NCBI RefSeq assembly: GCF_963921235.1
Contig: NC_086108.1
Span: 7,378,001-7,442,000 of the forward strand
Source: Mobula hypostoma
Taxonomy: Eukaryota
Reading direction: 5' to 3'
DNA length: 64,000 nucleotides
Shown here: in pieces, positions 5,362-55,280 of the stretch
Numbering within the stretch: the stretch's first letter is position 1
Layout of the letters: every line of letters begins with the position of its first letter
Position numbers and translations under genes: made by a program
Notes under the pieces: generated by a model
Database searches by the model: none
The model's input: the letters and a program-made list of their open reading frames with translations, nothing else
Told to the model about the DNA's origin: nothing

Positions 5362-6540
5362 TTCTATCGATGCACAGTGGAGAGTATCCTGACTGGCTGC
5401 ATCACAGCCTGGTATGCAAACACCAATGCCCAAGAATGGAAAAGTCTACAGAAAGACGGCAGACAGACGTAACCCAGTCCATCACAGGCAAAGCCCGCTC
5501 CATCATTTCGTACATCTACAACGAGCACTGTTGCTGGAAAGCAGCATCCATCATCAAGGACCCCACCACCCAGGCCATGCTCTCTTCTTGCTGTTTCCAA
5601 CAGGCAGGAGGTACAGAAGCCTCAGGTACCACACCACCAGATTCAGGAACAGTTATTACCCCACAACCATCAGGCTCCTGAACCAGTGTGGATAACTTCA
5701 CTCACCACAATGAGCCTCAGGTCCCACACCACCAGGTTCAGGAACAGTTATTACCCCACAACCATCAGGCTCCTGAACCAGTGTGGATAACTTCACTCAC
5801 CACAATGAGCCTCAGGTCCCACACCACCAGGTTCAGGAACAGTTATTACCCCACAACCATCAGGCTCCTGAACCAGTGTGGATAACTTCACTCACCACAA
5901 TGAGCCTCAGGTCCCACACCACCAGGTTCAGGAACAGTTATTACCCTACAACCATCAGGCTCCTGAACCAGTGTGGATAACTTCACTCACCACAATGAGC
6001 CTCAGGTCCCACACCACCAGGTTCAGGAACAGTTATTACCCCACAACCATCAGGCTCCTGAACCAGTGTGGATAACTTCACTCACCACAATGAGCCTCAG
6101 GTCCCACACCACCAGGTTCAGGAGCAGTTATTACCCCACAACCATCAGACTCCTGAACCAGTGTGGATAACTTCACTCACCACAATGAGCCTCAGGTCCC
6201 ACACCACCAGGTTCAGGAACAGTTATCACCCCACAACCATCAGGCTCCTGAACCAGTGTGGATAACTTCACTCACCACAACACTGAACCGATTCCACAAC
6301 CTACAGACTCACTTTCAAAGACTCTACAACTCATGTTCTCATATTATTTATTTTATTTGCACTGTTAGTTTTGTTTTGCACATTGATTGTTTGTCAGTCT
6401 TTGTTCATGTATAGTTTCTTGTAAAACTCTATGGTATTTATTTCTTTCCTGTAAGTGCCTGCAAGGAACTCGATCTTGGGGCTGTGTATGGTACCGTAAA
6501 TGTACATACTTCGATAATAAATTTACTTTGATCTTTGAGC
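5362..6540 (+). mobile_element. Rex1/Babar-type LINE 3' end hosting a 95-bp tandem array
   Basis: YRCTVESILTGCITAWY...HHPGHALFLLFPTGRRYRSLRYHTTRFRNSYYPTTIRLLN, then a 3' UTR ending gataataaatttactttga. Confidence 0.85.
5618..6280 (+). repeat. 95-bp tandem array, 7 units
   Basis: agcctcagg recurs at 5618, 5713, 5808, 5903, 5998, 6093 and 6188. Units are nearly identical. Confidence 0.98.
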
Positions 6541-8572
6541 TTTAGTGCCACATGACTGAAAACTAACTTTCAGGCCAGTTAGCAGCTTCTGGTCAGAGAA
6601 ACCGACTCATCAGCCGTACAAAACCAAAACAACTTTTCAGAATTGCTTGCATCATACACCGGGGTGCTCTCTTCAGTTACCTAATGAGGTAAGCGTAGTC
6701 TTTGGCCAGGGGCAGATGTCGTCAGGTGGTGCCCAGCCTTCATAGAGTGTTTCGACCCTTAACCACTACACTGTCCGGTTGGCGGATCGGCAGTGGTGCC
6801 AAGTCACTGCCCATCTGCCCAACTCCCCTCGCCGGCTCCATATCCAGCAGGAGGATCTTTCTGCTTCCTCCCCCATCCTGTGAGCTGCTTGGTTCTTGGT
6901 CTTTTCATCAAAGCCCAGCGCAGACAGCAACCTCTATGCTGACCTTACCGGAAACCCTCTACGGCCGATCTCCACCGGGAATAGCCACGTCTGCCGTCCT
7001 TTGTCCCTGCACTCCTGGACTAAGGACTGGTACTTCAGGGCATTCCTCGCATGAGCCTCCTTGCCGTTCCTCCCATGGCACTGTGAGCTCCATTGGGATT
7101 ATTTCCTTGTTTTCAGAGGATCACAGTACGATGTCTGGTCAAAGTGTGGCTTATACCACCTGGGGAATCTGAAGCTTCCTCCTCACATTGACCCTCATCT
7201 CCCATGATCTGGCAGTTTGCAGCAGGTTGGATTTAGGCACCTTGATCTGACTGGCCTGGCCCTCTCCTGCTCCAGTGTGTCAGCAAGGGACAGCAGGACC
7301 ATGTCGTGGCACCACCTATACCATCCTTGTGTCAAAGCTGCTTTGCATCCTGACAGTAACCTCGCTGACCACAAGGCTTGCAGTTAGAGTCCTGTGTGTG
7401 CAGCTGTGATGGCACAGGGAGAGTGTCAAACACGGACAGCAGGAGGAAAGAAATGCGGAAGGGCTTCAAAGCCCTGCCCAAGTGATCTTACACTGGGGAA
7501 GATCCCATTTCGTCCAGGCACCCTGTGACCCCCAACTCCACTGCCCTCGGTAACCACCTTTCGTTCTTGTGGTTCCGTACTTCTGCCTGGACCATTTACG
7601 CCTCTCCCTCGCACTTGCACTCCCCCATCGTTGGAAGTGTGCAGAGCTGAGGCCTTGCCGTCCCAGGCATGGGTTGCCAATGATGTCTCTCAATTGCAGG
7701 GAGCTCACCGCCTGGTCTGTGGCCGAGCTAGTGGCCCAGTCTTCTTGTGACCCCTGCTTGGTTTATTAGCTTGTCATCGAGCCCCTCAGTGTCAACACAA
7801 CTCTACACTTTGCCACCTTGAACTCCTCCACTACCGATGACAACGGGAGCTGTATCTGGCCTGATCTTACGTAGGGCCCCACTGAAGAAAACTTGGTGTT
7901 GGGGGGCAGATCCCCAGCCATCTCCCCAGCTGCTTGTTGACTTTCCTCTCAATCCCTCTGCAGTGGCCATGGGGAGCTCATACACCATGAAAGCCAAAGT
8001 AGCCTTGGTAGAAGCCCATCTTAGTACAATCATGTCTTAAGTTTACCAGGAAGTCCAGTTTTGTCAATCTTCTTCAGCCACTCTTCAGTCTGATTTACAG
8101 TGTTGGTGATGTTAGTGGTGTCTGTTATTGCTGCTTTCAAACATTTTCCAAGACAATTTAATGGGTTGTCCTCTATGGCTGGAATGACTTTTCCCTGTAC
8201 TTGAAGACTGAATTTACTGCTAACCTTGCCCTTTTTGATCACCATGCATCTGGACTTCCTGGTCTTGAAGGTCATCCTAGCCCAGGTAGCTACGTTGTCC
8301 AGGGTTTCCAATACCCATCTTGCTTGGACATGAGTTACAGTGGTTACTGTGATGTCATCCACGAACCCCTGAGTTGCAGGTTGTCGGATGCCGGGGTCCA
8401 TCGCTGGGTCTCAGGTTACGTCTGCTGCCGCTGATATGAGGAGGTCCATACCCATGACGACCAAGATGGGGGAGATGGTACAGCTGGTTGGAATCCCTTT
8501 TTGGAGGTTTTGCCACCCAGTTGTAAAGTGGGCTGAAGTGAAGTGTGGCTTGAATCCTCCCAGGTAGCTGGT

Positions 8573-9465
8573 GACACACACATAATGCTGGAGGAACTCA
8601 GCAGGCCAGGCAGCATCCATGGAAGAGTCAACATTTTGGGCCGAGACCCTTCAGTAGGCCTGGAGAAATAAAAGATGAGGAGTCAGTTAGGAGGTAGGGG
8701 GAGGAGAGGAGAAACACAAGGATGGGCGAAACTGGGGGAGGGGTGAAGTAAAGAGCTGGGAAGCTGATTGGTGAAAGAGGTACAGGGCTGGAGGTGGAAG
8801 AATCTAATAAGTGAGGATAGGAGGCCATGGAAGAAACAAAAGGGGGAAGGAGCACCAGAAATAGGCAGGCAAGGAGATAAGGTGAGAGAGGGAAAAGGGG
8901 ATAGGGAATGGTGAAGGGGGAGGGCATTACTGGAAGTTCGAGAAATCGATGTTCATGCCATCAGGTTGGAGACTACCAGATGGAATATAAGGTGTTGTTC
9001 CTCCAACCTGAGTGTGGACTCATCATGACAGTGGAGGAGACCATGGATAGATATATTGGAAAGGGAATGGGAAGTGGAATTGAAATGGGTGGCCACTGGG
9101 AGATCCCGTTTGTTCTGGCAGACGGAGCACAGGTGCTCAGTGAAGCGGTCTCCCAATCTACGTCAGGGCTCACCGATATGCAGGAGGTCACACCGAACAC
9201 AGAAAATGACCCCAACAGACTCACAGGCGAGGTGTCGCCTCACCTGGAAGGACTTTTTGGGGCCCTGAATGGTAGTGAGGGAGCAGGTGTAGCACTTGTT
9301 CTGCTTGCCAGGATAAGTGCCAGGAGGATGAATGGACAAAGGAGTCACATAGGGAGCGATCCCTGCGGATAGCAGAAAGTTGGGGGGGGGGAGGTGTGCT
9401 CAATGATGGGATTCCGCTGGAGATGGTGGAAGTTGCAGAGAAAATTATGTGCTGGATGCAGAAGC
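8573..9465 (-). mobile_element. Penelope-like element, 5'-truncated, nested in the Hero-like element
   Basis: GIY-YIG C-terminal peptides LLHIGEP..LGDRFTEHLCSVCQNKRDLPVATHFNSTSHS..RLEEQHLIFHL, pyrimidine-rich 3' region, degenerate hammerhead at 8625-8662. Confidence 0.9.
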
Positions 9466-11194
9466 ATGGTGATCAAGAGGAAGATTTGGACTAAAGGCTC
9501 TATCCCACCAAGCTGGAAAATGGCTGAAGGATGCTTTGTTGCTAAGGAAGAAGATTCCTCCACAATCACCCAGATTAGGACCATCTCCCTCCTTAGCATG
9601 GGTTGCAAGATATTCTTCTCGGTGCTTGCGAGAAGGCTGGTCTCTGACTTAATGAAGAATCACTATATCAACACATATGCTGGGTTTTTCTTGCTGATTA
9701 TGTCTCATGTTACTGGTGGGATATGGTAATGTGCAGGCCAGCCTGGATAAGGACATGTGGAATTGACCCGTAGGTGTTGGCTAGGTCTACTCAGACGACT
9801 GTCAGGTCGCCTTTCTACTGCCTGGCCTCGCTGATTATTGAGGTGTGTTCAGGGCACCCAGAGAAACCTGGGGTGTCACCTTTCTGGAGGGATGTGTTGA
9901 TATAGTGGTTCTCCATTAAGTCAGAGACCGGCCTTCTCACAAGCACCGAGAAGGATATCTTGCACTCCCTGCTAAGGAGGGAGATTGTCCTAAACTGGGT
10001 GATTGTGAAGGAATCTTCTTCCTTGGGAACAAAGAATCCTTCAGTTATTTTCCAGCTTGATGGGATAAAGCCTTTGGTCCAACTCTTCCTCATTATCTTC
10101 CACAACCTCCAGAGGAGTTTTGGACATTTCTTAGGTATTCCACTTGCTCCTGGGGTGACAGGTGACTTTGCTGTCTTCTGCCACGTTCAGCTCAGTTGCT
10201 GGAATTCTTGGTTGGGGGACTTTCGGATTGAACTGTAGTTTCTGATTCCTACGGGGATCTCCGTGTGATTTCTGCAGAAATTCTTCCACCTCCTGCTTTG
10301 AGCTGGTTAGGGTGCCAGGTTTTTGATGGCTGAGAAGAGCCTAGGTGAACCTGAGCGGGTTTTTAACAAACTGCACTCTCCTTCTCTCTTTCTCCCTTCT
10401 TCACCTTCACAGCTGCTCCACCCTCCTGAACTTGCACAGCTGTTCCTGCAGTTTGCCGGTTCGATCCTTGACAACCTTTATCGCCAGGTGAACTGTTTTT
10501 GAATTGTTTGTTCAGGGTCTTTGTCTCACTTCTCAGGTGGCGAATCTCCTATTTCCTCCTGGTTGGTTGCTGTGATGGTTTAAGATCCCCTTTCTTCTTC
10601 ACTGGGCTGAATCAATCTTTTGGCAAAGTTGAACACAATGGCTGTGAGGAAGTCAGTTTTCATGTAGACAGGCCCTGCCAATGTAACTTCCAAGCTGCAA
10701 TCCAGGTTGTCATCAACCTGTTTCCATGATACATTGTCTGACGATCTTGGCCATCTGATCCTCTCTTTCTTTGATGAATGGATTAGGTGTCAGAAGGGGC
10801 ACTCACTTGGTCTCTCTGGCACTGGGACAGCTCAGGTGTAGAGAGATCTTCAGCTCTGTGGGGTGCTTCCTGGCTGGAGTTCTGCATCATCTCAGCGGAC
10901 GTTGAGTCTGTGCATTGCCCTTTGAGTCACTTTCATTCCACAGCTGGACCTGCTTTGATGTTTTTGCAGATTTTGCCACGATAGTACTTTGCAATGAATG
11001 CCTCCCTGGTCAGTGTCGTTCGCTTGAGCCTTCTCATTATCATATTTCCAGTCCTGGCTGTTGTCATTATGTCTGTCCCATAGCCTCTCATTCTTCCCCC
11101 CACCCCCACCACCCGGGAGACTCTGGGGGGTATTGTGTATTTAGATCATCCGGAGCTTGTATGGTGCCCCCTTGCGAGTGCTGCACACAAGGTT

Positions 11195-11278
11195 GCTAGC
11201 CCTGTGTGTCCGTGCCAGCCTTTCCTGGAGGCTGGCGCTAGCCCTGTGTGTCCGTGCCAGCCTTTCCTGGAGGCTGGC
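11195..11278. repeat. 42-bp tandem duplication
   Basis: gctagccctgtgtgtccgtgccagcctttcctggaggctggc occurs twice in tandem. Confidence 0.95.
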
Positions 11279-11339
11279 TCTCTTTCCAGCATCACCAACC
11301 GTTCTCAGTTGCCATCCAGACTTTCCACGTCACGCCTAT

Positions 11340-12015
11340 CACTTGCATTTGTTATCTTTGTGGCAGCAGTTCAATGCAATATATAATAATAATAATAATA
11401 GAAAAACATCAAGAATTACAATAAGTATATATATTAAGTAGTTAAATTTTAAAAAGTAATGCAAAAATAGAAATTTAAAAGGTGGTGAGGTAGTGTTCAT
11501 GGGTTCAATGTCCATTCAGAAATCAGATGACAGAGGGGAAGGAGCTGTTTCTGAATCGTTGAGTGTGTGTCTTCAGGCTCCTGTACCTCCTCCCTGATGG
11601 TAGCAATGAGAAGAGGGCAGGTTCTGGGTGATGGGCGTCCTTAATGATGGACGCTGCCTTTTTGAGGCATCGCTCCTTGAAGATGCCCTGGATACTACAA
11701 GGGCTAGTGCCCATGATGGAGCTGACTGAGTTTACAACCCTCTGCAGGTTATTTCAATCCTGTGCAGTAGCCCCCACCGCGACCCCCCACATACCAGACA
11801 GTTAGATTGCTCTCCATGGTACATCTGTAGACATTTGCCAGTGTCTTTAGTGACAAACTAAATCTCCTCAAACTCCTAATGAAATATATTTACTGTCGTG
11901 CCTTCTTTGTAACTGCATCAATATGTTGGGAGCAGATTAGACCCTCAGAGATATTTACACCCAGGAACTTAAAATTGCTCACTCTTTCCACTCTGATCCC
12001 TCAATGAGGACTGAA
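11340..12015 (-). mobile_element. Rex1/Babar-type LINE 3' fragment
   Basis: CLKKAASIIKDAHHPEPALFSLLPSGRRYRSLKTHTQRFRNSSFPSVI (ORF 11523..11714). Confidence 0.85.
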
Positions 12016-12469
12016 CATCCACCCACAATAATCCTTTTTTATTCTTCCCACAGATTAGACCAGTAAACCATAAGATATAGGAACAGAATGAGGCCATTCG
12101 GCCCAACAGCTCTGCCTGCCCATTCCACCACGGCTGATTTATTATCCCTCTCAACCTTGTTCTCCTGCCTTCTCCCCGTAACCTTTGACACTCTTAGTTC
12201 TATCCCCTACCAACACTCAGCAGACGGCTTACAGTGGTCAACTAACTCATGGCCTTGCGCGTCTTTGGACTGTGGGAGGAAACTGGAGCGCCCGGTGGAA
12301 ACCCACGTGGTCGCAGGGAGAGCTTGCAGACTCCACACTGACAGCTCCAGAGGTCAGGGGTCGAAGCTGACAGGCAGCGGCTCTACACACTCCCTGCAAA
12401 CAGTGAGGCAGTGAAGAGGGCTTCATCAGCAGGAAGCCTCTGCCTCTTCTCCTCACCTCCCCCGCTGCC

Positions 12470-12935
12470 CTTCCTCCCAAGGCCCACTCTCCTTTCCCAT
12501 TAGATTCCTTCCTCTCCAGCCCTTTACCTTTTCCACCAAGCACCTCCCAGCTTCTCACTTCATTTCCCCCCCCACCCTACTCACCTTCTAATTTATTTAT
12601 TTGTTTGTTTGTTTGTTTATTGAGATACTTAATCACAGGACAATTTACAATGACCCATTAACATACCAACCGGCACGTCTTTGGACTGTGGGAGGAAACC
12701 TGAGCACGTGGTCGCGGGAAAAATGTACAAACACCTCACAGGCAGTGACGGGAATTGAACCCAAGTCGCCTGTACCGTAAAGCGTTGTGCTAACCACTAG
12801 GCTATTGTGCTGCTCCCTTATTCTGGCATCAGATTCCTTTCCAGTCCTGATGAAGGGTGTTGGCCCGAAACCGTTTATTCATCTTCACAGGTGCTGCCTG
12901 GCCTGCTGAGTTCCTCCAGCACTTTACGTGTGCGT
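12470..12935 (+). mobile_element. Penelope-like 3' end with a tRNA-SINE inserted on the minus strand (~12590-12815)
   Basis: ccagtcctgatgaagggtgttggcccgaaa and gctgcctggcctgctgagttcctccagca tail. SINE motifs ggactgtgggaggaaacc and gggaattgaacc. Confidence 0.75.
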
Positions 12936-13369
12936 GCATAGGCGGCGAGATTCATACTCAGAACCGGAACCAGGTTGATTATCACAGACGTACAGCTGTA
13001 CAGTGCAAGGCGTAAAAAAATTATTATAGTGTTCATGGATCATTCAGTAACCTGATGGGGAGTGGAAGAAGCTGTTCCCGAATTGTTGATTCTTTGCTGC
13101 CCTCTGACACTTCGACCATTTCCTGGAAATCTGCAGATTTTCTTGTGTTGATATTGACCCCCCCCCCCCCCGAGGGTAGTAATGAGAAGAGGGCATGTCC
13201 AGGGTGGTGAGAGTCCTTCATGATGGATGTCATCTTGTGTTTTGAAGATGACCTTGCTGGTGGGGAGAGTATGCCCATAATGGAGCTGGTGAAGTCCACA
13301 ACTCCCTGCCACGCCTTTCAATCCTGTGCACTGCAGTCTCCACACCGGGCAGAGATACAACCCGTCAGA

Positions 13370-13822
13370 ATCGTAATCACAAAGTGCTCTGCAGATGCTG
13401 GGGTCAAAGCACCACTCACAGCAAGCGTGTTGTGAGTGTTGCTTTGACCCCAGCATCCGCAGAGTATTTTGTGTTTACCATTCGCTACTCTGCTGCGAAG
13501 TCTCTCCGCGGTATTCCTACCCTGAAGAAGTTTAAATCTTCTCTTCAACGGGAGTTCAGTGAGACACTCTCTCACTGCTCCCCCTCTGTGATCTCCGCCT
13601 CTCTCCGACTCTTCGACCAGATCCTGACCCAGACCCGCTCTGGTTTTTCACCTGGAACCTACCAGCCTTCTCCTTCCCACCCTCCCCCCAGCTTCTTTAT
13701 AGGGCCTCTGCCCCCTCCCTCTACAGTCCTGACGAAGGGTTCCGGCCCGAAATGTCGACCGATCGTTTCCACGGATGCTGCCCGACCTGCTGAGTTCCTC
13801 CAGCGTGTTGTGAGTGTTGCTT
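13370..13822 (+). mobile_element. Rearranged Penelope-like insertion (hairpin + putative ORF start + terminal repeat) with 12-bp TSD
   Basis: TSD caacc(c/g)gtcaga at 13358-13369 and 13823-13834. 34-bp inverted repeat at 13387-13464. Peptide SSLQREFSETLSHCSPSVISASLRLFDQILTQTR resembles a Penelope ORF N-terminus. Confidence 0.75.
13724..13761 (+). ncRNA. Minimal type-I hammerhead ribozyme motif (Penelope-associated)
   Basis: cagtc-CTGACGA-a-ggg ttccgg ccc-GAAA-t-GTC-gaccg: both core boxes, stem II and stem I are present. Confidence 0.75.
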
Positions 13823-14544
13823 CAACCGGTCAGAGAGCTCTCCGCGGTGCATTGCAGAAATTTATGAGTGTCTTTGGTAACACAACAGATGTCCTCAAAC
13901 TCCTTATGAAGTACCACAAACAAGAGGAAATCTCTTCCAAGCCACACACACCAAATGCTGGAGAAACTCAGCAGGTCAGGCAGCGTCTATGGAAATGAAT
14001 AAACAGTCGACATCTTGGGCCGAGACCCTTCATCAGGAAGGAATGAAGTATAGCTACAGGCGTGCCTTCTTCAAGATTGCATCAATGTGTTGGGCCCCAG
14101 GATAGATATTTTAAGACAGTGGTTCCCAGGAAGGTGAAGCTGTTCACCTGTCCCACCGCTGGCCCCTCGATGAGGACTGGAGTGAGTTCCCTCAACTTCC
14201 CCTTCCTGAAGTCCACAATCAATTGCTTGGTCTTACTGGCATTGGGTGCAAGGCTGTTGCTACAGCGCCACTCACCCAGCTGATCTCCTTCACTCCTGCA
14301 CACCAACCCATCACCATCTGAGGTTCTGCTGACAGCAGTTCTGTTATTGACAGATTTATAGATGGCCTTTGAGCTGTGCCTAACAACACAGTCATGGGTG
14401 TAGAGGGAGTAAGCAGCGGGCTAACGCCAAATCCTTCAGCTGCGCCAGTGTTGATTGTCAGCGAGGAGATGTTATTTCCGATCTTCACTGACTGCGGTCT
14501 CCCAATGAGGAAGTCAAGGATCAGTTACAGAGAAAACTACACGT

Positions 14545-14877
14545 GTATGTGTGAGTGTGTATTGTGTGTGTGCGCATATCAGTAAATGTATGTCTGTGCC
14601 TGTGTGTCTGTGTTTGTATCTGTGTGGGTTTGTGTGTGATGGTGTGTGTCTGTGTTTCTATGTGTCCGTGCTTGTGTCTATATGTGTGTGCTTATGTGTG
14701 TGAGCGTCTGTGTGTGTGTGTGTGTGTATCTGTGTGTGTGTGATTGTGAGTGTCTGTGTGTGGGTATTTCTGTGTGTCTGTGTGTTTGTGTTTGTGTGTG
14801 TGGGTGTACATGCGTGTGTTTGTGTGTGTCAGTGTACATATGTGTGTGTTTGTCTGTGTGTGTGTGTCAGGGTTTAT

Positions 14878-14932
<55 letters not shown>

Positions 14933-15044
14933 GGTGTGTGTTTGTGTTTGTGTCAGGGTGTATATGTTTGTGTGTGTGTGTGTGAGGGTGTGTGTGTGTG
15001 TGTGTGTGTGTGTCAGGGTGTATATGTTTGTCCGTGTGTGTGTG

Positions 15045-15075
<31 letters not shown>

Positions 15076-19915: not shown

Positions 19916-20499
19916 GCAGCCTTGCTGAGGCAGAGGGGCCTGTTAATGTGCCGTTATCTCTGAATAAATAAATACAAAAACTGAGTCCAGATGAAGGCAT
20001 TTCATTCAAAGACCAGGGCATTACTGAGAGGTTAGGTGGTGAGACCCCCAGGGAATTTGTCCAACTAGAACTGATGGGCTTAGTGGCAGGAGGGAGAATT
20101 CCGTGCGGGCAGCAGAGACTTATCAAAGCTCCGGAGTTCCCCCTTGGGTCAGCATGATATCAGGATGCAGCGAAGTGGCTGCTCGAGAGATTCACAGGGA
20201 AATTCCCAGCCTGTCAACATGGTTTAAGCTCACATTCTCACCTCACACTTGCTTCTGTGAAGTGGCAGTGAGCTCCAGCAGCAACGATCGGTGTCTCTCG
20301 TGTGAGAAATTGCCCCAGGACATCTCGGGGGTGGGGGGGGGATACAGGAAAGACACAAAGGGCCTGGTTGAAAAGGAGCAGGGCAAGGAAAGATGATTAC
20401 AGGAGTTCCTTAAGGCTCGGGACAGGAACCTGGGAGGAGTAGAAATCAGGAGTTGCTGGAGTGAAGAGCTCATGGAGGGGTGTGTGAGCTAGCGGGGCA

Positions 20500-21485
20500 G
20501 GGGGTTACAGAGATGGGGCGGTGTGTAGGGGAGGGAGGGGTTTACAGAGACAGGGAGGGGTGTAGGGGTGGATGGGGTTACAGAGACAGGGAGGGGTGTA
20601 GGGGATGGAGGGGTTACAGAGACAGGGAGGGGTGTAGGGGAGGGAGGGGTTATGAAGTCAGAGAGAGGAGATGGGGAGGGAGGGTGTTACGGAGATAGGG
20701 AGGGGTGTAGGGGAGGGAGGTGGTTACGGAGACAGGGAGGGGTGTAGGGGAGGGAGGTGGTTACAGAGACAGGGAGGGGTGTAGGGGATGGAGGATGTTA
20801 CAGAGACAGGGAGGGGTGTAGGGGAGGGAGGGTGTTACGGAGACAGGGAAGGCTGCAGGGGAGGGAAGGGTTATGAAGTCAGAGAGGGGAGCTGGGGAGG
20901 GAGGGTGTTACGGAGATAGGGAGGGGTGTAGGGGAGGGAGGGGTTTCCAGAGACAGGGAAGGGTCTAGGGACAGAGGGTGTTACAGACACAGGAAGGGCT
21001 ATAGGGGACGGAGAGGGTTACATAGATGGGGTGGTGTGTAGGGGTAGGAGGGTGTTACAGAGACAGGGAGGGGTGTAGGGGTGGGAGGGGTTACAGAGAC
21101 GGAGGGGAATTGGGGAGGGGTTACAGAGAAGGAGTGGTGTAGGGGAGGGAGGGGTGCTGGTGAGGGAGGAAGTTTCTGAAACAGGAAGGGGTGTAGGGAG
21201 GGAGTAGACAGGGAGGTGTGAAGGAGACAGAGGGGGTTACAGTGTCAGGGAGAGGTGCAGGGGAGAGAGGTGAAAGATAGGGAGTGTAGGGGAGGGAGGG
21301 GATGACAGAGACAAGGAAGGGTGTAGGGGAGGGAGAGGGGTTACAGAGACAGGGAGGGGTGCAACAGATGGAGGGTGTTACAGAGACAGGGGGGTATAGA
21401 GGATAGGGAGGGACTTTAAGGAGATGGGGGAGAGGTGTAGGGGAGGGAGGGGTTTACAGCGACAGGGAAGGGTGTAGGGGCTGGA
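20500..21485. repeat. G-rich minisatellite, ~33-36-bp unit
   Basis: Repeated ggggttacagagacagggaggggtgtaggggagggag, degenerating towards the edges. Confidence 0.95.
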
Positions 21486-43017: not shown

Positions 43018-43439
43018 TATGAACAAAGACTGACAACCGGTGTGCAAAAGAGGACAAACTGTGCGAATAAAAAATCAATAATACTGAGACCATGAGTTGT
43101 GGAATGCTTGAAAAAGCCTGTGGGTTGTGGGATCAGTTCAGCTGAGTTGAGTGGAGTTACCTACACTGGTTCAGGAGACTGATGGCTGAGGAGTACTGTT
43201 CCCTCCTGGCAACATCCCCATAACTTGTTTCTGCAGCAAGATAGCCCGGCTTCTACACTCCAAAGACCATCGTAACACCTGCTTTCGTCACCTCCTGGCA
43301 TGTTTCCCTGTGGTGACTGTGAACCAGGACACCAGATTTCACACTACCTCTGTCTTCCTCGCCAAATTGGGTACTGAAATACAAGACGATCCTGAAGGCC
43401 TAGTGGCCAGACCCTGCTCCTGCACATCTGCTTCCATAC

Positions 43440-43884: not shown

Positions 43885-44212
43885 GCCACAGAGTCAGTTC
43901 GGTGTTGAGGGAGTGACGATGGTTGTAGGTCACAGTCACAGAGTTAGTTCAGTACTGAGGGAGTGACGATGGTTGTAGGTCACAGTCACAGAGTCAGTTC
44001 AGTACTGAGGGAGTGACGATGATGACAGGCCACAGTCACAGAGTTAGTTCAGTACTGAGGGAGTGACGATGGTTGTAGGTCACAGTCACAGAGTCAGTTC
44101 AGTACTGAGGGAGTGACGATGATGACAGGCCACAGTCACAGAGTTAGTTCAGTACTGAGGGAGTGACGATGATGACAGGCCACAGTCACAGAGTTAGTTC
44201 AGTGCTGAGGTG
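43885..44212. repeat. 50-bp tandem repeat (~6.5 units) with a duplicated 100-bp dimer
   Basis: Unit cacagtcacagagt(t/c)agttcagtactgagggagtgacgat(ggttgtaggt/gatgacaggc). 43971-44070 is identical to 44071-44170. Confidence 0.97.
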
Positions 44213-46229
44213 AGTAAAGCCTCCCAGAGTAGTGAGCTGAACAATGGTTCGTCCTCCACCCTCAGCCTCAATGCCTTAATCTTATTAATGTGGCTTGGCG
44301 TTTAAATTGGCGAATTACCGATTTGCTTTTCACTCTCGGGTCTGGGTCCCCCTGGCCCAAAGTTACAATCCGGGCCGAAGTCTGCTCCAGCAATGGCCGC
44401 TGTGACCATACCTGCATTCTCGAGAGTCCAGTTGGCTGAACCCCTGAAGGTTTCATACAGGTGGTCCAAAAGCACACCTCCCTACAGGAAATTACAGGGT
44501 GCAGATTACAGTGATCGCAGTCCTGAAAAGGTACCTTTAGTAGAATTGTTAGTCACTTTGTCAGCTGCCTGTAAAACGTTGCTGTGTCTTGTCACATGGA
44601 CTAAAGAAAACTGACAGAAAACTGGAGGGCTATGTGGGAGGGAAGGGTTAGATTGAATTAGAGTATGTTAAAAGGGTGTGGGCCGAAGGGCCTGTACTGT
44701 GCTGTGGGGAACAAGGGCACTGCGTTTGCTCTCCGGTCTGCCATTTGTCCTCAGGCTGAGGATGTGGATTGATGGGAGAGGAGAGGTGGAAGGCAGATCG
44801 GCTGTTCGGGACTGGGCTCTGGCCTTAAAGACTAGATTAGCTTTATCTGTCACTAGTACATTGAAACAGTGAAATAGTGGAATGTCAATGACCAGCACTG
44901 TCTGAGGATGTGATGCTACAATTTGTTTTGATGTTTGGATGTACATGTAATATAGAAAGCTTATCTTTAATCTTCTATATCATCCTTCTTCCCACCCCTT
45001 CCCTCCCTCCGCCTCTATCTGTTTTCTCTCTTTCTCTTTTCTCCCCCATTCATCCCCTCTCTTTCATCTCTCTGCCCCCACTCTCCCCCTCTTTTCACTG
45101 TCTCCCTCCCTCCCCCCCTTTCTATCTCTCTCCCTCTCTCCATTCCCCTTCTCATTATCTCTCTCCCCTCATCCCCTCTTTCTCACTCCATCTCTTTCCC
45201 TTCCTTCGCCCCCCTCTTTTTATCTCTCGCTTGCTATCTCTCCATTCCCCCCTCTCTCTCTTCCCCTTTTTCAGGAGAAGCGCTAAGGTGGTGCTAGCTG
45301 GTGTTATAGCCCCAGCAGAAATTACAATAGCACCAGCGTAACACCACCAAGAAATTAACTGAAATTTCACACACAAATTGTAGCTGCTTTGCTTTCTCTG
45401 TATAGTTTTGAATACAGTTTGTTTCTCCAGTTGATCTAATGAAACAGCGGCCCCAATTACCATAGCACCCACACAGCAATAAAGTTATAAACTCTGTCAG
45501 ATCCACTCTACACTTCTGCTTATTCATTCGTTGTCAATGTCTTGCCATTGCTGTCCTCAGATCAGTTAAGCTGATCTAAGATCACTTCAGGTGGTGACGT
45601 CACTCACGCTCACTTACGCGAGAGATTGATAAGTGTACATCCAGTCGCAAATCCATGGTCTCGCAAGACTAACGGATGCCACACACACACACATTGTGCT
45701 TTTACAAGCAAGCGTGCGCCTGGCACGTGCATTATTTTGGCCGGCGTGAAAAATGGATCGATTTTTAGTCAGAAAACGACCTCATCCAGAGGAATCAGTG
45801 ATGTCTCAGCCTGAGCCTGTCTTAATTGAAAGTGACATGCAGAAAGGAGTAAGTGGGGATGAGGATGACAGCAGTTCATCGAAGGAGTGTGAGGGCGAAG
45901 TAGAGGAACAAGAAATGGAGCCGGATTCGGAAGAGAACGTGGATGAAGCTTCTCTTAGTGCGAGTGGGAATACTGTTAGTGTCAGCCAGCAGCCTGAGGA
46001 AGGACCCCATCAGCCAGCATTGAAAAAGTACCCTTCGCTGCCTGCAACAGTTTGGCAATCAGCAAAGGAGTTTTATTCGAGGCTGCTTTGACTGGCTGGA
46101 ATATTCGACCACGAAAGATACTAAGTTCTGCTTCACAAACACAAAATACTCTGCAGATGCTGGGGTCAAAGCAACACTCACAACACGCTGGAGGAACTCA
46201 GCAGGTCGGGCAGCATCCGTGGAAACGAT

Positions 46230-46267
46230 GAGTCGATGTTTCGGTCCGGAACCCTTCGTCAGGACTG
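46230..46267 (-). ncRNA. Minimal type-I hammerhead ribozyme motif
   Basis: Minus strand cagtc-CTGACGA-a-gggttccggacc-GAAA-c-ATC-gactc. Confidence 0.65.
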
Positions 46268-46907
46268 TAGAGGGAGGGGGCAGAGGCCCTGTAAAGAAGG
46301 TGGGGAGAGGGTGGGAAGGAGAAGGCTGGTAGGTTCCAGGTGAAAAACCAGTAAGGGGAAAGATAAAGAGGTGGGGGAGAGGAAGCAGGGAGGTGACAGG
46401 CAGGAAAGGTGAAGAAGGAATAGGGGAAAACACAATGGGTAGTAGAAGGAGGCGGAACCATGAGGGAGGTGATAGGCACCTGGGGGAGGGGGCAGAGTGA
46501 CATAGGGATGGGGGAAGGGAGGGGGAGGGAATTACCGGAAGTTGGAGAATTCTATGTTCATACCAAGGGGCTGGAGACTACCTAGACGGTATATGAGGTG
46601 TTGCTCCTCCAACCTGAGTTTAGCCTCATCATGGCAGTAGATGAGGCCATGTATGGACATATCTGACTGGAGCTGCACTCTGCCCCCTCCCCCAGCTGCC
46701 TATCACCTCCCTCATGGTTCCGCCTCCTTCTACTACCCATTGTGTTTTCCCCTATTCCTTCTTCACCTTTCCTGCCTGTCACCTCCCTGCTTCCCCTCCC
46801 CCACCCCTTTATCTTTCCCCTTACTGGTTTTTCACCTGGAACCTACCAGCCTTCTCCTTCCCACCCTCCCCCCACCTTCTTTATAGGGCCTCTGCCCCTT
46901 CCCTCTT

Positions 46908-46945
46908 CAGTCCTGACGAAGGGTTCCGGCCCGAAACGTTGACCG
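46908..46945 (+). ncRNA. Minimal type-I hammerhead ribozyme motif
   Basis: cagtc-CTGACGA-a-ggg ttccgg ccc-GAAA-c-GTT-gaccg, with palindromic AACGTT at helix III. Confidence 0.72.
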
Positions 46946-49900
46946 ATCTTTTCCACGGATGCTGCCCGACCTTCTGAGTTCCTCCAGCATGTTGTGAGTG
47001 CTACGTTCTGCTTCGCATGCAGGCATTTCCTGTGTGGAGGACATGGCTTCCATTCTGAGTCCACCTTCACTGTCACCGGTTACCGCAACTGGTGGAAAGC
47101 TACAACAGCTTTCAAAACCCACCATGTAAGTGCAGTTCATAAGTTTGCGATGGAGGCAAGGGCCAAATTCAGACTGAGAAAACAAGGCGGTTAAAGATTA
47201 GGAAATATGCTTGACAAAGGACATGCAAAGATTGTCCAAGAAAATCGTGAGTATATGAGAGCAGTGGTTGAGTCTCTAGCAAGGACAGACAGTGAATGAC
47301 ACAGTGGAATTTCTAGCTCCAATGAGACCCTACCGCGATGTATTTATAGATTTATACAAACCAATCTGCATATCACTGACTCTACCTGCGACATCTGCTT
47401 CATGCAAACGGAGTTTCTCTTGCCTCAGACGCCTCAAAAACTACCTAAGGAATAGCAGCGGCGACGCTCGGAACAGCAACTTGGCCCTGTTGGCCATAAA
47501 CAGCCGGAGGACCAAAGCACTTCACATCCAGAAAATCATTGATGCTTTCACCACCAATCACAACAACAGATGGATTGTGCTTCTCTGAAAACATCAATGG
47601 TGAGTGCAGTTAATTTTTTAAAAATTTGGTCCAAGACTAATGCTGATTATTATTATTATTTTGTGATGGATACCCCATAGTCCTTATGTTTCCTGCAAAT
47701 CCCAAAATATTACATTTACTGCTATTAAGCCCACTGGTTTTGCTTAGACTTCCAAGTGGTGATTCTGTTGATTTTTGTTTTAAATTCAGTAGCCGAATTA
47801 ATTGAGGTATTACATGGTCAGGGTACAATTTGTCCAACTCCTGGTAAAGCCTTGCACCTGTTGTTTGCCTTATTTCATTTTAATAACGGTGTATCTTTTG
47901 GCATTGTCTGTCTATGTAATGTGAATAGCAGTGAACATTGTGGGTTAGTGTTGTGTTTTTCAGTTGAAAAGCATGCATTTGGTGCTGATTGTGGGATTGG
48001 TGCGTGATCCACATTGTGCGCTGTGGGTCGGATGCTCTGTTGGTTTGCTTGTTTATGCTCTGTGTAGCCCGGGTTGTCTCTGATGCTGTTGACACTGTCA
48101 CAGTTCACTTCTACATTATATTTATCAATTGCTGTTGCTTGTGAATCAACAGAAGCATTTATAGTAGGCACATAATGCTTGAAACTGACTTTTGAATGCC
48201 ACGCGTCTGGCCTTGCGAATACATATAACCATACAGTACATCCCTCAGCACCATCACTGAGTAATTCAGCCCCACTGTAGCACCAGCAAGAAAAAATCTC
48301 TGGCCCACCACTGCCCTTTTTACCTCCCTCCCCCTCTTTCTGTCCCTCCCTCCCTCTACTCCCCCATCTCTTTCTACCCACTCCCCATCTATCACTCTCT
48401 CTACCCCTCCCCATCTCTCTTCCTTCCTCTCTCTCTATCTCCTCCCCCATTTCCCTCTTTTTCTCCCCCTCTCTTTCTACCACCTCCTCTCCCTCATCCC
48501 TCTCTCTTTCTCCAAACAGCAGTGATCACGGTCACGCCATGGATACAGCCAACTCTCGTCCAATTACCTGGTGAACGAGTGACCTCACGTTAACAACACG
48601 GAGTAACAGTTTAAATTAAACGATGATCTCAGTGTGTTTGTCAGGGGCTGTTATTGTTTTTTTTTTCGCTTTGCATACACAGAGATTAAAAAATTGGGTG
48701 ATGTCATTGAGGTTCGTTCAAAGAATGAGTCAACCCTTCTCTCTCTCTCTCTCTGAGGAGCGGACAGAGAAGTGCAAAATCTGCCGCTTCCTCTCGGTGA
48801 TAAAAACCGCAGGACCTGAGCACGTGTGGTTAAATGCTTGTCTCATTAGTGGCTCACACTACCAATGCAACAGGAATGTGGGAAGCGATGGTGCCTGAAG
48901 GCAAGGAAGTAATTGTGTTTGGGGCGGGCTCCTGCCGCGCTACCATCAAACTTCATAAAACATCAAACATTCAGCAAAGGAACAAGACCTTCGGCTGTGC
49001 CGAACTAACTCACCTAGAATTAAAGGGCCCGACTAAATGAACCCCTCCCGTCCGCACAAGAAATCAGAATTATTATCAGAAAATATCGGAATTATCCGAA
49101 AATTATTCAGAAAATATCAGAAACGAGTTTATTACCTCTGACATAAGACATGAAATTTGTTACAAAAAGAAATATACCTATATGTATTTTAATGCTGCCT
49201 AGCAACCCTTCCCCGTATGTTAATTAATACCTACAGGCAGCGGCGGGAATTGAACCCGGATCGCAAATTCCTTAAAGTGTTGTGCTAACCACTCGGCTGT
49301 CATACAACACTGGAGTCTTTGGTGACGTATCAAGTCTCCCCGAACCCCCAATAATATTAAGATATGAATAAATTGTGATCTAAAAATAATATTCCTGAAA
49401 TTCCTCTTTCGTGTCTTCATGGCACATATGATCCCGAGTTCTGGTCTCAGAACAAAAATAAAACTCTTTGTACTGAAACATAGGCATTTGTTTAGCACTT
49501 TCCATGTTAGAAAAGATCTGAGGGCTTGGAACAGGAAACAAGGAAGCCAGTTGCCACACTGCAAGCTCTGGCAGACCATGAGACACTGTGTGAGTGGCTC
49601 GTTTTTAATGATGTTTGGTGGGGGATACATTTGGGTTGGTGGACCTCCAGAAGAATGTTAAACAACAGCTGAGAAAGGATGTGAATGCATCTCAGATGGG
49701 CATCTCATCCAGGAGACTTGGCTGCTGCCCATGGCTGACAGCTGAGTGAATTTTTATTGTATTTATTTTATTTAGAGATACGGCATGGATCGACAGGCCT
49801 TTCCGGCCCCAAAAACCACCTGCTTAGGCCTAGCCTGATGACAGGACAATTTCTTTGGACTGTGGGATGAGACCGGGGCACCCATGCGCTCACGGGAGGG

Positions 49901-51051
49901 ACATACAAACTTTCTATAGATGCCGTGCAACTGAACTCTGAACTCTGATGCCTTGAACCGTAATAGTGTCATGCTAACTGCTACACTACCATGGCAACCT
50001 CCCCACCCACCCCCCACCCACCCACCTTTCCAATTCTTTGAACAGGTCTACATGGTGCACATTGGTTCTTGAAGCAACCTGCAAAACCCTAATCCTACCT
50101 CAGCTATGAAATACTGTGGACCACCTGAGTCTCTACAACTCTTTCTATGGTCCAGGTGTGGGTTGATGGGGGCTAGGCCAACTAGATGGGCTGAAGGGCC
50201 TGTTTCTGTGCTGTAGTGCTCTATGATGCAATGACACCTTCCTACACTACTATGGACATCTCCTAGGGGGGGAGAAGGTGTTTTGATGTTGTTCTCAGTA
50301 TCTTTGTTCCGCTTGCGTTGTTTGACAGCATTATGGGTATGCCCATGTTAGCACCAGATTGGCGGTGACTCTCCTGGGCTGCCCCCAGCACATACTTGGT
50401 TGCTAATGCAAACGACGTGTTTCAATGTACATGTGAAAAGGTTCCTGAAGGTTGAAATAGCCAGGGGTTGTAATGGAGACAAACTCCCACTACCTATTAA
50501 ATGCTCCCAATGACGTGCGTCTCAAATAGCCTCTGACAACCAAGTCCACTTCCTGGTCTTCACAAATGGCCTAGCTACTAAGCCCAGCGGAACCAATTCC
50601 ACTGACAGGAGAAGGGGCAAAGGTGGGTTACTGGCACCTTAAAACCAGCCGCTTTGGGCAGATGGGGCTCATCAGCCACGGTTGGCAGCTGGTTTAGGAG
50701 AAGGAAAACTCTGATCTCAAACTTCTGCTGCCTTGCACCTACACCCACTCATGGGGAAGGCTTCAGGAGTAATCACTTGGGAAAAATCCGGAGCTGGAGT
50801 CCCTAAAGCAGTCCTATGGTGCCAAACGGTCTCTCACGATCATTTGGATTAATCGGCTGCGTGGAGAGGGGGAGCTTGCTCTCCACATCGTACTGCCCTG
50901 ACTTGAGTATCAGGTAGACAGCTAGAATGTAACATCCATGGTTGACCCTGACCAATGGAGGGCCTCAAGTGTGCAAATCTGAATCTGATAATTAATGTCT
51001 TTGTTCTTGCACAGTCAAATTCAGAATCAGGTTTATTATCACTGGCATCTA

Positions 51052-51205
51052 CAGTACTGTGCAAATATCATAGGCACATGTATATACTGTAACTAAGGTG
51101 ACAAGGACTTTTGCACAGTACCGTAGTGGTTCTATGCATTGCGCTGTACTGCTGTCTCAGAAAAAAAACGTGACATATGTGAGTATTGATAAACCTGATT
51201 CTGAC
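51052..51205 (+). mobile_element. Composite mini-MITE element (copy 4, left end only)
   Basis: cagtactgtgcaaatatcataggcac...gacttttgcacagtacc, followed by the same captured tail to gataaacctgattctga. Confidence 0.65.
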
Positions 51206-51214
51206 ATAAGGCAA

Positions 51215-52570
51215 ACTTATAGGAGCAGAATTGGGCCATTTGGCCCATCAAGTCTGTTCTGCCATTTCATCATGGCTGATCCATTTCCCTCTCAGCCCCA
51301 GTCTCCTGCCTTCTCCCCGTATCCCTTCACGCCCTGACTAATCTACAGTCTATCAACCTCTGCCTTAAACGACTTAGCCTCCACAACCATCTGTGGCAAC
51401 GAATTCCACAGACTCACCACATTCTGACCGAAGAACTTTCTCCTCAACTCCATTCTAAAAGAACGCCCATCTATGCTGAGGCTGAGAACCTAACCTGTAG
51501 TGTTAGTCTCAAAGGAGGTTCACAAAAATGATTCCAGGATTGGAAGGGCTTGTCATATGAGGAGTGTTTGGTGGCTCTGGGCCCGTGCTTGCTGGAACTC
51601 AGAAGAACGAGTACAGATTTCATTGAAATTTATCGAACATTGAAAGGCCTCGATAGAGTAAATGTGGAGAGGATGTTTCCTATGGTGGGGAAGCCTAGGA
51701 CCAGATATGTAGAGTTAAATAAGTACCCTGTATTACAAAAAGAGAGTCTTATGGTACCTCACTACTTTTATAGGAGCAGTATATAGCGGTCAGCACAATG
51801 TTTTACAGTACAGGCGACCTAGGTCCAATTCCCGCTGCTGTCTGTAAGGAGTTTGCAAGTCCTCCTGGAGACCACATGGGTTTCCTCCAGGTGCTCCAGT
51901 TTCTGCCCATATACTGGTTGATTGGTCGTTGTAAATTGTCCCATGATTAGGCTAGGATAAAATCAGGGGGTTGCCGAGTGGTATGGCTCGAAGGGCCAGA
52001 AAGGCCAGAAAGGCCAGAAGGGCCTATTCCTCACAGTATTTGAATAAACAACAAACAAATTTCTACAGATGTACCAGGGAGAGCATTCTGACTGGTTGCA
52101 TTACCGTCTGGTATGGAAGGGCCACTACACAAGATCAGAAAAAGCTGCAGAAAGTTGTAAACTCGGACATCTCCAGCATGGACACTAACCTCTCCAATGT
52201 CGAGGTCACCTTAAAAAGCCAATGCCTCATGAAGGCGGCATCCATCATTAAGATCCCTCATCACCCAGGACATGCCCTCTTCTCATTGAACCATCAGGGA
52301 GGAGGTACAGGAGCCTGAAGACACACATCCAGTGATTCAGGAACAGCTTCTTCCCCCCTGCCATCCGATTTCTGAATAGTTCATGAAGTCATAAATCCTA
52401 CCTCATTTTGCTGCTCTCTTTTTGCACTACTGAAAAAATTATGTATAAAGTATACTGTATATATGTCTTATTGTAATTATATATTTTATGTATTGTATTG
52501 CACTGCTGCTGCAAAACAACAAATTTTATGATATATGCCAGTGATATTAAACCTAATACTGATTCTGATT
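51215..52570. mobile_element. Cluster of CR1 fragments (both strands), a tRNA-SINE (~51775-52045) and a Rex1 3' end (~52055-52570)
   Basis: Peptides LSYEECLVALG..LKGLDRVNVERMFP and FYRCTRESILTGCITVWYG..KAASIIK. SINE motif gaccacatgggtttcctccaggtgctccagtttc. Confidence 0.8.
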
Positions 52571-53107
52571 CCTGAGTGGGCAAGAGGGATTAATTTATTT
52601 GGGCAGTTGGCTGCCAGTCCAATTATTTTGAATTCTGCCATGCAAAAGGAGAAAGATTGAGTTTGGATCGAGCCAGCCATCTCATAAATACCCAGTGCTG
52701 TAGAAATATCATCAGAAGCTCCAGACACTTCATCCCTGGGAGAGAAACGATCTTTACTGGCTGGGCTACTGAGAGACTGACGCCGGACAGAGGGCTCTGG
52801 AGAGCTGCTGTCGCCTGCCCAGCTCCGGTGGGGGTGGTGGGCTGAAGAAGGTGAACATTTCAGCACAATGTGAGATGGGCCGAAGGGCATGTTCTTGTGC
52901 TGACTGGTTGGCATTCTATGCTCTATGATCTTCACACCGGGAACAGAGCAGATCTTTGCTTCTAGATTATCTAACCAGATCATGTGATGGCTTCTGACAC
53001 ACCTCCCCTTTAATAAACCTTTAAGGGCCATAACAGTGAAAATGAAACTGGGTCCTAGCGACATGTTGCAATAGTTACTCTCACATTACACTTTCTTACA
53101 AAGATCA

Positions 53108-55280
53108 AAGTTCAAAGTAAGTTTATTGTCAGAATCAGAATCAGAATCCTTTGTTATCGCCAGGTATGTGGACACATACAGGGAATTTGATGCCTCAAAG
53201 TACAAATATGTCGCCATACGCAACACTGAGATTCATTTTCTTGTGGGCATTCTCAATAAACAGAATAATAACTATAACAGAATCAATGAATGACCACCCA
53301 ACTAAGGCGTTCAACCAGAGTGGAAAACTCAACAAATTGATCATGTTTAAAAAGAAGAAATAATAATAATAAGTAAACAAACAATAAATATCAAGAACAA
53401 GAGATGAGGAGTCCTTGAAAGTGAGTCCATTGGTTGTGAGAATGTTTTAATGATGGGGCAAGTGAAGTTATCCACACTGGTTCAGGAGCCTGATGGTTGT
53501 GGGGTAATAACTGTTCCTGAACCTGGTGGTGTGGGACCTGAGGCTCATTGTGGTGAGTGAAGTTATCCCCACTGGTTCAGGAGCCTGACGGTTGTGGGGT
53601 AATAACTGTTCCTGAACCTGGTGGTGTGGGACCTGAGGCTCATTGTGGTGAGTGAAGTTATCCACACTGGTTCAGGAGCCTGATGGTTGTGGGGTAATAA
53701 CTGTTCCTGAACCTGGTGGTGTGGGACCTGAGGCTCATTGTGGTGAGTGAAGTTATCCACACTGGTTCAGGAGCCTGATGGTTGTGGGGTAATAACTGTT
53801 CCTGAACCTGGTGGTGTGGGACCTGAGGCTCATTGTGGTGAGTGAAGTTATCCCCACTGGTTCAGGAGCCTGATGGTTGTGGGGTAATAACTGTTCCTGA
53901 ACCTGGTGGTGTGGGACCTGAGGCTCATTGTGGTGAGTGAAGTTATCCACACTGGTTCAGGAGCCTGATGGTTGAGGGTAATAACTGTTCCTGAACCTGG
54001 TGGTGTGGGACCTGAGGCTCATTGTGGTGAGTGAAGTTATCCACACTGGTTCAGGAGCCTGATGGTTGTGGGGTAATAACTGTTCCTGAACCTGGTGGTG
54101 TGGGACCTGAGGCTCATTGTGGTGAGTGAAGTTATCCACACTGGTTCAGGAGCCTGATGGTTGTGGGGTAATAACTGTTCCTGAACCTGGTGGTGTGGGA
54201 CCTGAGGCTCATTGTGGTGAGTGAAGTTATCCACACTGGTTCAGGAGCCTGATGGTTGTGGGGTAATAACTGTTCCTGAACCTGGTGGTGTGGGACCTGA
54301 GGCTCATTGTGGTGAGTGAAGTTATCCCCACTGGTTCAGGAGCCTGATGGTTGTGGGGTAATAACTGTTCCTGAACCTGGTGGTGTGGGACCTGAGGCTC
54401 ATTGTGGTGAGTGAAGTTATCCACACTGGTTCAGGAGCCTGATGGTTGAGGGTAATAACTGTTCCTGAACCTGGTGGTGTGGGACCTGAGGCTCATTGTG
54501 GTGAGTGAAGTTATCCACACTGGTTCAGGAGCCTGATGGTTGTGGGGTAATAACTGTTCCTGAACCTGGTGGTGTGGGACCTGAGGCTCATTGTGGTGAG
54601 TGAAGTTATCCACACTGGTTCAGGAGCCTGATGGTTGTGGGGTAATAACTGTTCCTGAACCTGGTGGTGTGGGACCTGAGGCTCATTGTGGTGAGTGAAG
54701 TTATCCACACTGGTTCAGGAGCCTGATGGTTGTGGGGTAATAACTGTTCCTGAACCTGGTGGTGTGGGACCTGAGGCTCCTGTACCTTGTTCCTGATGGC
54801 CTCAGTGAGAAGAGAGCATGTCCTTGGTGGTAGGTGTCTTTGATGATGGATGCTGCTTTCTTACAAAAGTGTTTCATGTAGAAGTTCTCAATGGCCACGG
54901 GGGTGGGGGTCTTTACCCATGATGGGCTGGGTCATATCCACTACTTTGTGTAGAATTTTCCATTCAAGGGCATTGGTGTTTCCATACCAGGCTGTGATGC
55001 AGCCAGTCAGTATACTCTCCACTACACATCTATAGAAGTTTGTCGAAGTTTTCAATGTCATGCTAAATCTCAGCAAACTCCTAAGGAAGTAGAGGTGCTG
55101 CCATGCTTTCTTCATAATTGCACTTGTGTGCTAGATCCAGGAGAGGTGCTCTGAAATTATAACACCTTGGAATTTAAAGTTGTTAACCAATTCCACCTTT
55201 GATCCTCTGATGAAGATTGGCTCATTGACCTCTTGCTTCCTTCCCCTGAAGTCTATAATCAGCTCCTTTGTCCTGCTGAA
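53108..55280 (-). mobile_element. Rex1/Babar-type LINE 3' end hosting a 95-bp tandem array
   Basis: KKAWQHLYFLRSL..FYRCVVESILTGCITAWYGN and KAASIIKDTYHQGHALFSLRPSGTRYRSLRSHTTRFRNSYYP. Confidence 0.88.
53461..54779 (-). repeat. 95-bp tandem array, 14 units, with a 5-unit (474-bp) higher-order duplication
   Basis: agtgaagttatc recurs every 95 (twice 94) bp from 53461 to 54694. Reverse complement of the 5618-6280 unit. Confidence 0.98.

Follow-up and report, generated by a model that had tools for sequence, protein, structure and literature searches.

We analyzed a 64,000-nucleotide stretch of Mobula hypostoma DNA (contig NC_086108.1, positions 7,378,001 to 7,442,000; hereafter, the window) in which two copies of a long interspersed nuclear element (LINE), inverted with respect to one another and 47 kb apart, each carry a tandem array of the same 95-bp unit. 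We refer to these copies as host A and host B, after the two LINE subtypes to which they are assigned below, and to the arrays within them as array A and array B. Tandem Repeats Finder (TRF) reported a period of 95 and 98% matches for both arrays, with 7.0 copies at 5618–6280 (+ strand) and 13.9 copies at 53461–54779 (− strand). These coordinates, together with 19 exact copies of the tandem junction, agree with a preliminary description of the window, made from its letters alone, which had claimed two inverted arrays 47 kb apart with a common unit and junction. The features concerned are given here, with ORF2 standing for open reading frame 2 and UTR for untranslated region; the runs mentioned are sequencing runs considered further on.

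5356..5617, + strand: host A, LINE ORF2 end, 5'-truncated and frameshifted, subtype A; 76% identity to host B over 269 bp
5618..6280, + strand: array A, six 95-bp units and a 93-bp last unit; 6 private substitutions, none common to units
5703..5721, + strand: first tandem junction (CACCACAA, TG, AGCCTCAGG); 19 exact copies over both arrays, break without a direct repeat
6281..6543, + strand: host A 3' UTR, subtype A; poly(A)-like signal plus short CTTTGA-like tail; closest to the A-type copy of the window at 43070–43145 (83%)
52879..53099, no strand assigned: single-copy flank behind host B, present in three runs
53100..53460, − strand: host B 3' UTR, subtype B; poly(A)-like signal plus short CTTTGA-like tail; 81–84% to three in-window B-type copies
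53461..54778, − strand: array B, thirteen units (two of 94 bp) and an 85-bp last unit; all subtype-A sequence
53831..54019, − strand: units B9 and B10, recurrence of the B4/B5 pair; the position-72 variant is also in B13
54305..54493, − strand: units B4 and B5; B-like variants occupy unit positions 45–46 and 72; same pair again five units later
54779..55300, − strand: host B, LINE ORF2 end, 5'-truncated, with stops and frameshifts, subtype B; Pfam PF09004 at 54912–55130 (E 5.7e-08)

The unit comprises the final codons of ORF2, a TAA stop codon at unit position 76–78 and then ~15 bases of the UTR, just as the preliminary description had it. Its commonest form is matched exactly by 12 of the 19 units that end in the junction, and variant sites number two at most in any unit. 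Between the arrays, units are ~99% alike: the mean number of differences per 85 bp is 1.7 within array A, 1.0 within array B and 1.4 between the two, and the net divergence of array A from array B is ~0 (0.01 differences per 85 bp). The unit aligns to four single LINE copies in the window at 77–84%. With a LINE-derived unit in tandem at each of two loci and 19 identical junctions, the repeat fits the description of a transposable element-derived multilocus tandem repeat.

Besides the hosts, the window contains several single LINE copies with two kinds of UTR, and upstream of the unit the contigs of three sequencing runs (X1, X5 and X17) give two majority sequences, represented in X1 by 527 and 1,825 contigs. 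Upstream of its array, host A has the subtype-A majority state at two of three diagnostic sites, the third being private, and host B has the subtype-B state at all three. Downstream, the UTR of host A differs from the majority non-B UTR of the read contigs at 3 of 30 positions; that of host B is 69–78% identical to A-type copies and differs from the contig majority at 9 sites within 53374–53460. After the last unit, host A runs into CACCACAACAC and host B into TGCCCCATC, and the CACCACAA segment of the unit is missing from host B's own downstream flank, so that the two different host UTRs of the preliminary description are found again here. Judged from these sites, and with the link between upstream type and UTR type drawn from in-window copies only, each host appears to have the same subtype before and after its array.

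The best relatives of host B are in stingray, sawfish, catshark and skate, and longer relatives have endonuclease and reverse transcriptase (RT) domains. One relative (P0007) carries PF03372, PF00078 and PF09004, and a longer copy in the window has RVT_1; both hosts are truncated. PF09004 following the RT is what we take to be a mark of the Rex1 clade. The 3' ends of both hosts, with their poly(A)-like signal and short CTTTGA-like tail, agree with the description of Rex1/Babar elements as having a conserved 3' UTR followed by an oligonucleotide tail (the section on 3' ends in PMC6274825), and the highest Rex1 coverage is reported for rays (the coverage figures in PMC13343379). Rex1 is thus a plausible name for the host family. 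A search for target-site duplications at either host, or swapped between the hosts, returned only 5–8-bp matches in unfitting places.

The similarity between the two loci changes abruptly at the array boundaries. In the 100 bp upstream, 77 of 99 aligned bases are identical between A and B, and in the 70 bp downstream 51 of 69 are; for the first units of the two arrays the figure is 83 of 85, and for the last units 84 of 85. The probability of such a step, from 74–78% in the flanks to 83–84 of 85 in the unit, is 1e-3 to 1e-9 (binomial) at background divergences of 10–24%. At nine sites the two B-type copies of the window agree with one another and differ from the unit; the first and last units of array B have the non-B state at every one of these. 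We found no other young similarity between the two host neighborhoods beyond the arrays, and 110 other dispersed pairs of at least 100 bp (offset array-to-flank rows counted in) have a median identity of 75% and a maximum of 95.7%. Host B being of equal subtype upstream and downstream, array B can be regarded as a foreign patch; both of its ends lie inside the homologous segment. A ready-made array would have brought its own flanks with it; the flanks are diverged, and this therefore effectively excludes retrotransposition or duplication of such an array.

At the level of sequence, these findings indicate that the array unit replaced a segment in a second, already resident LINE of the other subtype. 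As in gene conversion, near-identity between paralogues is sharply bounded by diverged flanks (83–84 of 85 versus 74–78%) and the flanking markers are unexchanged, a picture that an even number of crossovers would equally give; the flanks are not as alike as the units, as those of a retrotransposed or duplicated array would be. The preliminary description had held the units to be more homogeneous than the LINE flanks and had proposed comparing the divergence of the two and classifying the host subfamilies, naming one parental flank haplotype common to all loci as the outcome that would speak against it. The comparison bears it out (~99% versus 74–78%), the hosts at the two loci differ in subtype (A and B), and with flanks 74–78% alike and of different subtypes they share no such haplotype.

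The variants inside array B suggest which of the two hosts was the recipient. Two of the three variant events in array B hit the B-diagnostic state (p ~0.003 for random change), versus none of the six in array A. From these B-like variants, host B would be the recipient. The recurrence of the B4/B5 pair as B9 and B10 makes a five-unit higher-order pattern visible in array B, but it falls short of significance when tested by shuffling (p 0.075).

The window contains 19 copies of the 19-nt junction motif, all of them exact (6 in array A and 13 in array B), where 0.03 would be expected by chance, and the motif was found nowhere else in the window at up to three mismatches. Only two distinct 60-bp contexts occur among the 19 copies. 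The 95-bp unit ends without a direct repeat and has 1–2 extra bases at its junction. In this it is unlike the tandem units of 47, 48, 70 and 73 bp that the same LINE end has given rise to in several rays (window 53461–53546; P0001, P0025, P0026, P0027), each of which is bounded by a 5–8-bp direct repeat: host B contains CCATCAGG 70 apart, TCAGG 48 apart and CATCA 47 apart, and B-type copies contain CTCAC 73 apart. Tandem joints leading from the LINE end 48 bp back, with 5 shared letters, occur in 16, 11 and 15 contigs of X1, X5 and X17, respectively, and joints leading 73 bp back in 1, 1 and 15, so that support for the 73-bp joint is much the strongest in X17. Other contig joints fit the 70-bp unit (57–58 back plus 12 letters between); the idea that these 57–58-back joints are alignment artefacts was dropped, since the 12 intervening letters give a 70-bp unit. 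Among predicted proteins, two manta records have a 70-residue period, the 70-bp unit is found also in one stingray record, and another stingray protein has a 47-residue period. An annotated UBE2Z isoform of a manta includes the translation of one 70-bp array.

Units of the LINE end that are bounded by direct repeats can, it appears, form repeatedly. That the 95-bp junction has no direct repeat, has 1–2 extra bases and is identical throughout is evidence of a single origin: this junction arose once. The claim of the preliminary description that the array was not born twice independently is upheld by the same identical, repeat-free junctions. A HMMER search with a 67-residue frame crossing two junctions found the junction peptide in 0 of 4 protein matches, a negative of little weight; three of the four represent the different, 70-bp unit of the LINE end and the fourth (P0028) is an unrelated repeat. 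None of 13 candidates scored in a word-indexed protein search with the junction-spanning frame. One metagenome contig matching the junction 19-mer (L001, 402–420) was rejected as a lone chance match in unrelated AT-rich DNA; the same contig carries two diverged copies of a ~1.1-kb repeat.

The stretch used to search sequencing runs took in a single junction and, of host B, the downstream side alone. The single-copy flank differs at 0 of 253 bp in X1, 1 of 249 in X5 and 26 of 249 in X17. Because of the identical flank, and because X1 also matches a 137-bp piece of the host B UTR exactly, we take X1 to be from the same species. Contigs of X1, X5 and X17 all end inside the host B tail; a species whose flank is 89% alike thus has the tail at this site too, and host B is therefore older than these splits. 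Although the orthologous flank was found in two other species, the contigs listed do not contain the native segment of host B.

Words sampled from 53300–54900 were present at shares of 0.73–0.75 in four runs of one organism (organism A), versus 0.42–0.50 in 16 runs of eight other organisms, and by share of positions the non-junction words of the unit account for 0.47 and the junction words for 0.24. On the assumption that words are weighted by position, these shares are most simply explained by a junction present only in organism A, whose runs are one sample and maybe the source of the assembly; in simulations of sampling at 1 in 32, 40 of 419 fitting draws were compatible with organism A lacking the junction. 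Contigs running over the ends of the searched stretch numbered 64 in X1, versus 33 (with 84% of the run read) and 67 in the other species, and the depth of the last bin in X1 was 135,894, versus 138,238 expected from one-base chance overlap alone. X1 thus has no excess of contigs or depth past the junction relative to the two other species, and its last bin, at face value, allows at most ~15,300 junction copies. If 1,500 arrays were scattered at random, one would have a partner within 47 kb 3.5–5% of the time (for an assumed genome of 4 to 2.76 Gb). The LINE family itself is abundant, with 59,165–69,982 contigs per run. The lack of junction excess, together with the neighboring positions of the two loci, therefore favors local exchange, although tens of further loci may exist.

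On balance we put forward, as an evenly poised proposition, that the 95-bp repeat is a neutral LINE-derived minisatellite that was born once in a subtype-A copy, probably host A, and was then copied locally into host B. End-joining or a template switch would have duplicated 93 bp (the ORF2 end and the UTR start) of a subtype-A copy, with 1–2 bases added; that this happened a single time is what the junctions show, and host A is most simply the place. The dimer would then have grown through unequal exchange. A break in the matching segment of the old, inverted subtype-B copy could next have been repaired from the array, through non-allelic gene conversion or a template switch, leaving at least two subtype-A units where host B had had an 85-bp segment of its own, with the original ORF2 of host B on one side, its original UTR on the other and no net exchange of flanks. 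The replacement is what the flank comparison shows, and the pathway is a likely one, interlocus conversion and template switching both having been proposed as routes of satellite seeding (the discussion of routes in PMC7403614). Finally, array B would have expanded to 14 units, keeping two traces of B-type sequence. We infer the donor, the direction, the pathway and the timing; a local copy of this kind requires no protein or function.

Several points weigh against this proposal. The nine sites that mark array B as non-B are defined by just two B-type copies in the window. Each B-like variant is a single site with A-type neighbors and may be a new mutation or come from another copy of the family, and the T at position 46 is the family majority (~75%). 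An identity of ~76–81% between hosts is low for homologous exchange. Since CACCACAA is also found in an A-type sub-lineage (loose ends at 53463), the donor may have been a copy other than host A. Summed contig depth, on which the estimate of junction abundance depends, is not a copy number, and contigs drop variants. Lastly, the original segment of host B is not among the contigs listed.

Placement of the unit in a second resident LINE could also be the work of a mobile satellite, of which these would be two arrays among tens to hundreds of loci, with circles or long-range conversion invading dispersed LINE copies, and we consider this somewhat unlikely. The window does show one invasion of a different subtype, the family offers very many landing sites (59,165–69,982 contigs per run), and the unit is seemingly less decayed than either host; precedents exist in the Rsp-like clusters seeded at 1.688 clusters (in the Rsp-like part of PMC7403614) and in snake sSat3, a single unit present at up to thousands of loci (in the sSat3 part of PMC10702118). 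However, junction-crossing contigs and depth show no excess in the same-species run, with at most ~15,300 junction copies the chance of a partner within 47 kb is at most 3.5–5%, and the absence of the junction peptide from all four protein matches points, weakly, the same way. Of what the preliminary description had proposed, homology-directed placement in a second resident LINE is supported, and a genome-wide mobile satellite, with two neighboring loci known and no junction excess, is not. An unlikely possibility of a similar kind is a homing-like spread without a protein of its own, in which a lineage-young unit replaces the homologous 85-bp segment in resident LINEs of any subtype. Were this so, every old copy of a very abundant family would be a potential landing pad, a landing near the donor would make an inverted or direct repeat pair able to rearrange the DNA between, and the window would represent one hop within the divergence time of sister taxa.

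The inverted hosts, 47 kb apart, would also be suited to a crossover between array A and the host B segment that inverted the 47 kb and split the array, followed by a second one, between the by then near-identical arrays, that restored the orientation. Units B4 and B5, which adjoin each other and are B-like at 46 and 72, respectively, could be the residue expected of one crossover between these positions, and recurrent inversion between homogenized inverted repeats is known (the cases treated in PMC9731477); two crossovers are nevertheless required, the present flanks are subtype-concordant and none of the six variants in array A is B-like, all of which makes this quite improbable. Still less probable is that one array, or its placement in host B, is an assembly artefact produced by a read mis-join. 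Among the 24 contig pieces listed, a minority of all, none bridges the junction or the edge of array B exactly, and ~10% of simulated samplings give the observed word shares without the junction in X1; yet arrays A and B each carry variants missing from the other, the arrays are short (0.66 and 1.3 kb), the window contains no N, and the word shares of organism A fit a junction share of 0.24 atop a non-junction share of 0.47. We find it highly improbable that a transcript of array A was reverse-transcribed by the family RT from an intact 3' end and that the complementary DNA recombined into host B, even though the array adjoins the LINE 3' end and a 9-bp stem is possible in the unit: such a route does not favor a neighbor, host B retains its own UTR and tail, and the fold is no stronger than that of shuffled sequence (z −1.26, 23 of 200 shuffles equally good), which gives no sign of a hairpin as driver. 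We give next to no credence to retrotransposition or segmental duplication of a pre-formed array, or to two independent duplications. The LINE end does yield tandem units repeatedly, but the flanks of the two arrays are 74–78% alike and of different subtypes, young similarity is limited to the arrays, the recurrent units are bounded by 5–8-bp direct repeats and the 95-bp unit is not, and the UTR of host B cannot provide CACCACAA.

Elsewhere in the window, no host gene was found in 258 stop-to-stop frames of at least 70 residues (low-complexity frames were left out, and short exons would be missed); the frames gave matches only to RT, PF09004 and hAT, plus one sub-threshold match. A young inverted pair lies at 46175–46499 and 46676–47000 (95% identity over 325 bp, 176-bp spacer), with a third copy of its sequence at 13640–13822 (95.6%). 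On both sides of the pair are hAT-like frames, with a Pfam hAT match at 47280–47585; the pair as a whole (46175–47000) may be a foldback structure or else a short, young element present twice. Other tandem repeats include a 79-bp array at 63182–64000 (10.4 copies, 93% matches) that continues past the window end, a 50-bp array at 43887–44215 (6.6 copies, 91% matches), a 37-bp G-rich minisatellite at 20499–21480 (~27 copies, strong strand skew) and a 42-bp duplication at 11195–11278 (two perfect copies). With regard to 9348–10238 and 8030–8410, two decayed retroelement-like frames that resemble each other lie on opposite strands, at 9373–9729 (+) and 9815–10186 (−), and are a possible inverted duplication.

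As the evidence stands, a neutral and local event of a type already described most likely produced the two arrays; what is unusual is that subtype labels the recipient. How a new tandem repeat reaches a second locus has usually to be deduced from numerous old arrays; here subtype marks the second locus on both of its sides, and homology-directed replacement is therefore the only simple route left. The sister taxon that is ~99.6% alike in the flank may carry the empty site. Conversion can make two old, recombination-silent LINE copies into a young, ~99% identical inverted repeat, and such an array pair can keep exchanging and could invert the 47 kb between. If there are only two loci, they are a neat illustration, on a local scale, of a process already known, and have no evident function.

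The literature searched, supplements aside, gave no paper describing the 95-bp unit or an array that passed from one LINE subtype to another; such cases may be found in the supplements of PMC10702118 and PMC3389668. The chicken HinfI satellite, derived from the CR1 3' UTR and partial ORF2 (as given in PMC9659126), is, like ours, an ORF2-end/3'-UTR unit of a CR1-group LINE; the LINE satellites covered there are abundant, whereas we have 21 units at two loci. Human transposable element-derived multilocus tandem repeats (Ahmed and Liang 2012; the part of PMC3389668 on 185 multilocus clusters of 5,932) are likewise minisatellites born in retroelement copies. Some of these start at 5–20-bp direct repeats, like the 47-, 48-, 70- and 73-bp units described above and unlike the 95-bp unit, and that part of the work does not show discordance of host subtypes. 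The satellites of squamates termed sSats (Vassetzky et al. 2023, PMC10702118) share with our arrays tandem units of 70–290 nt made from part of a retroposon, host sequence at the ends, and units whose similarity, within loci as well as between them (89%), exceeds that of the host elements (64%). They differ in being derived from short interspersed nuclear elements (SINEs), in occupying up to thousands of loci and in having mostly one-ended host sequence; the main text of that paper does not use the term gene conversion, and there appears to be no test in it of entry into hosts of another subfamily. In non-allelic gene conversion between human long terminal repeats (Trombetta et al. 2016, PMC4921805), otherwise diverged copies contain, as here, a near-identical patch with sharp boundaries; the tracts described there transfer substitutions, whereas the tract in host B carries a tandem junction and seeds a new array. 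Similar in outline are the Rsp-like repeats inserted into 1.688 (2020; the account of new clusters in PMC7403614), in which one junction is likewise common to loci and new arrays arise at a resident homologous repeat, with interlocus conversion, template switching and circle reintegration as candidate routes. In that case the landing pad is an unrelated satellite to which a hybrid repeat gives access, and many loci are involved (one junction type accounts for 19 of 31 clusters); here it is an old LINE of the sister subtype, whose homologous segment was replaced, at the second of two known neighboring loci.

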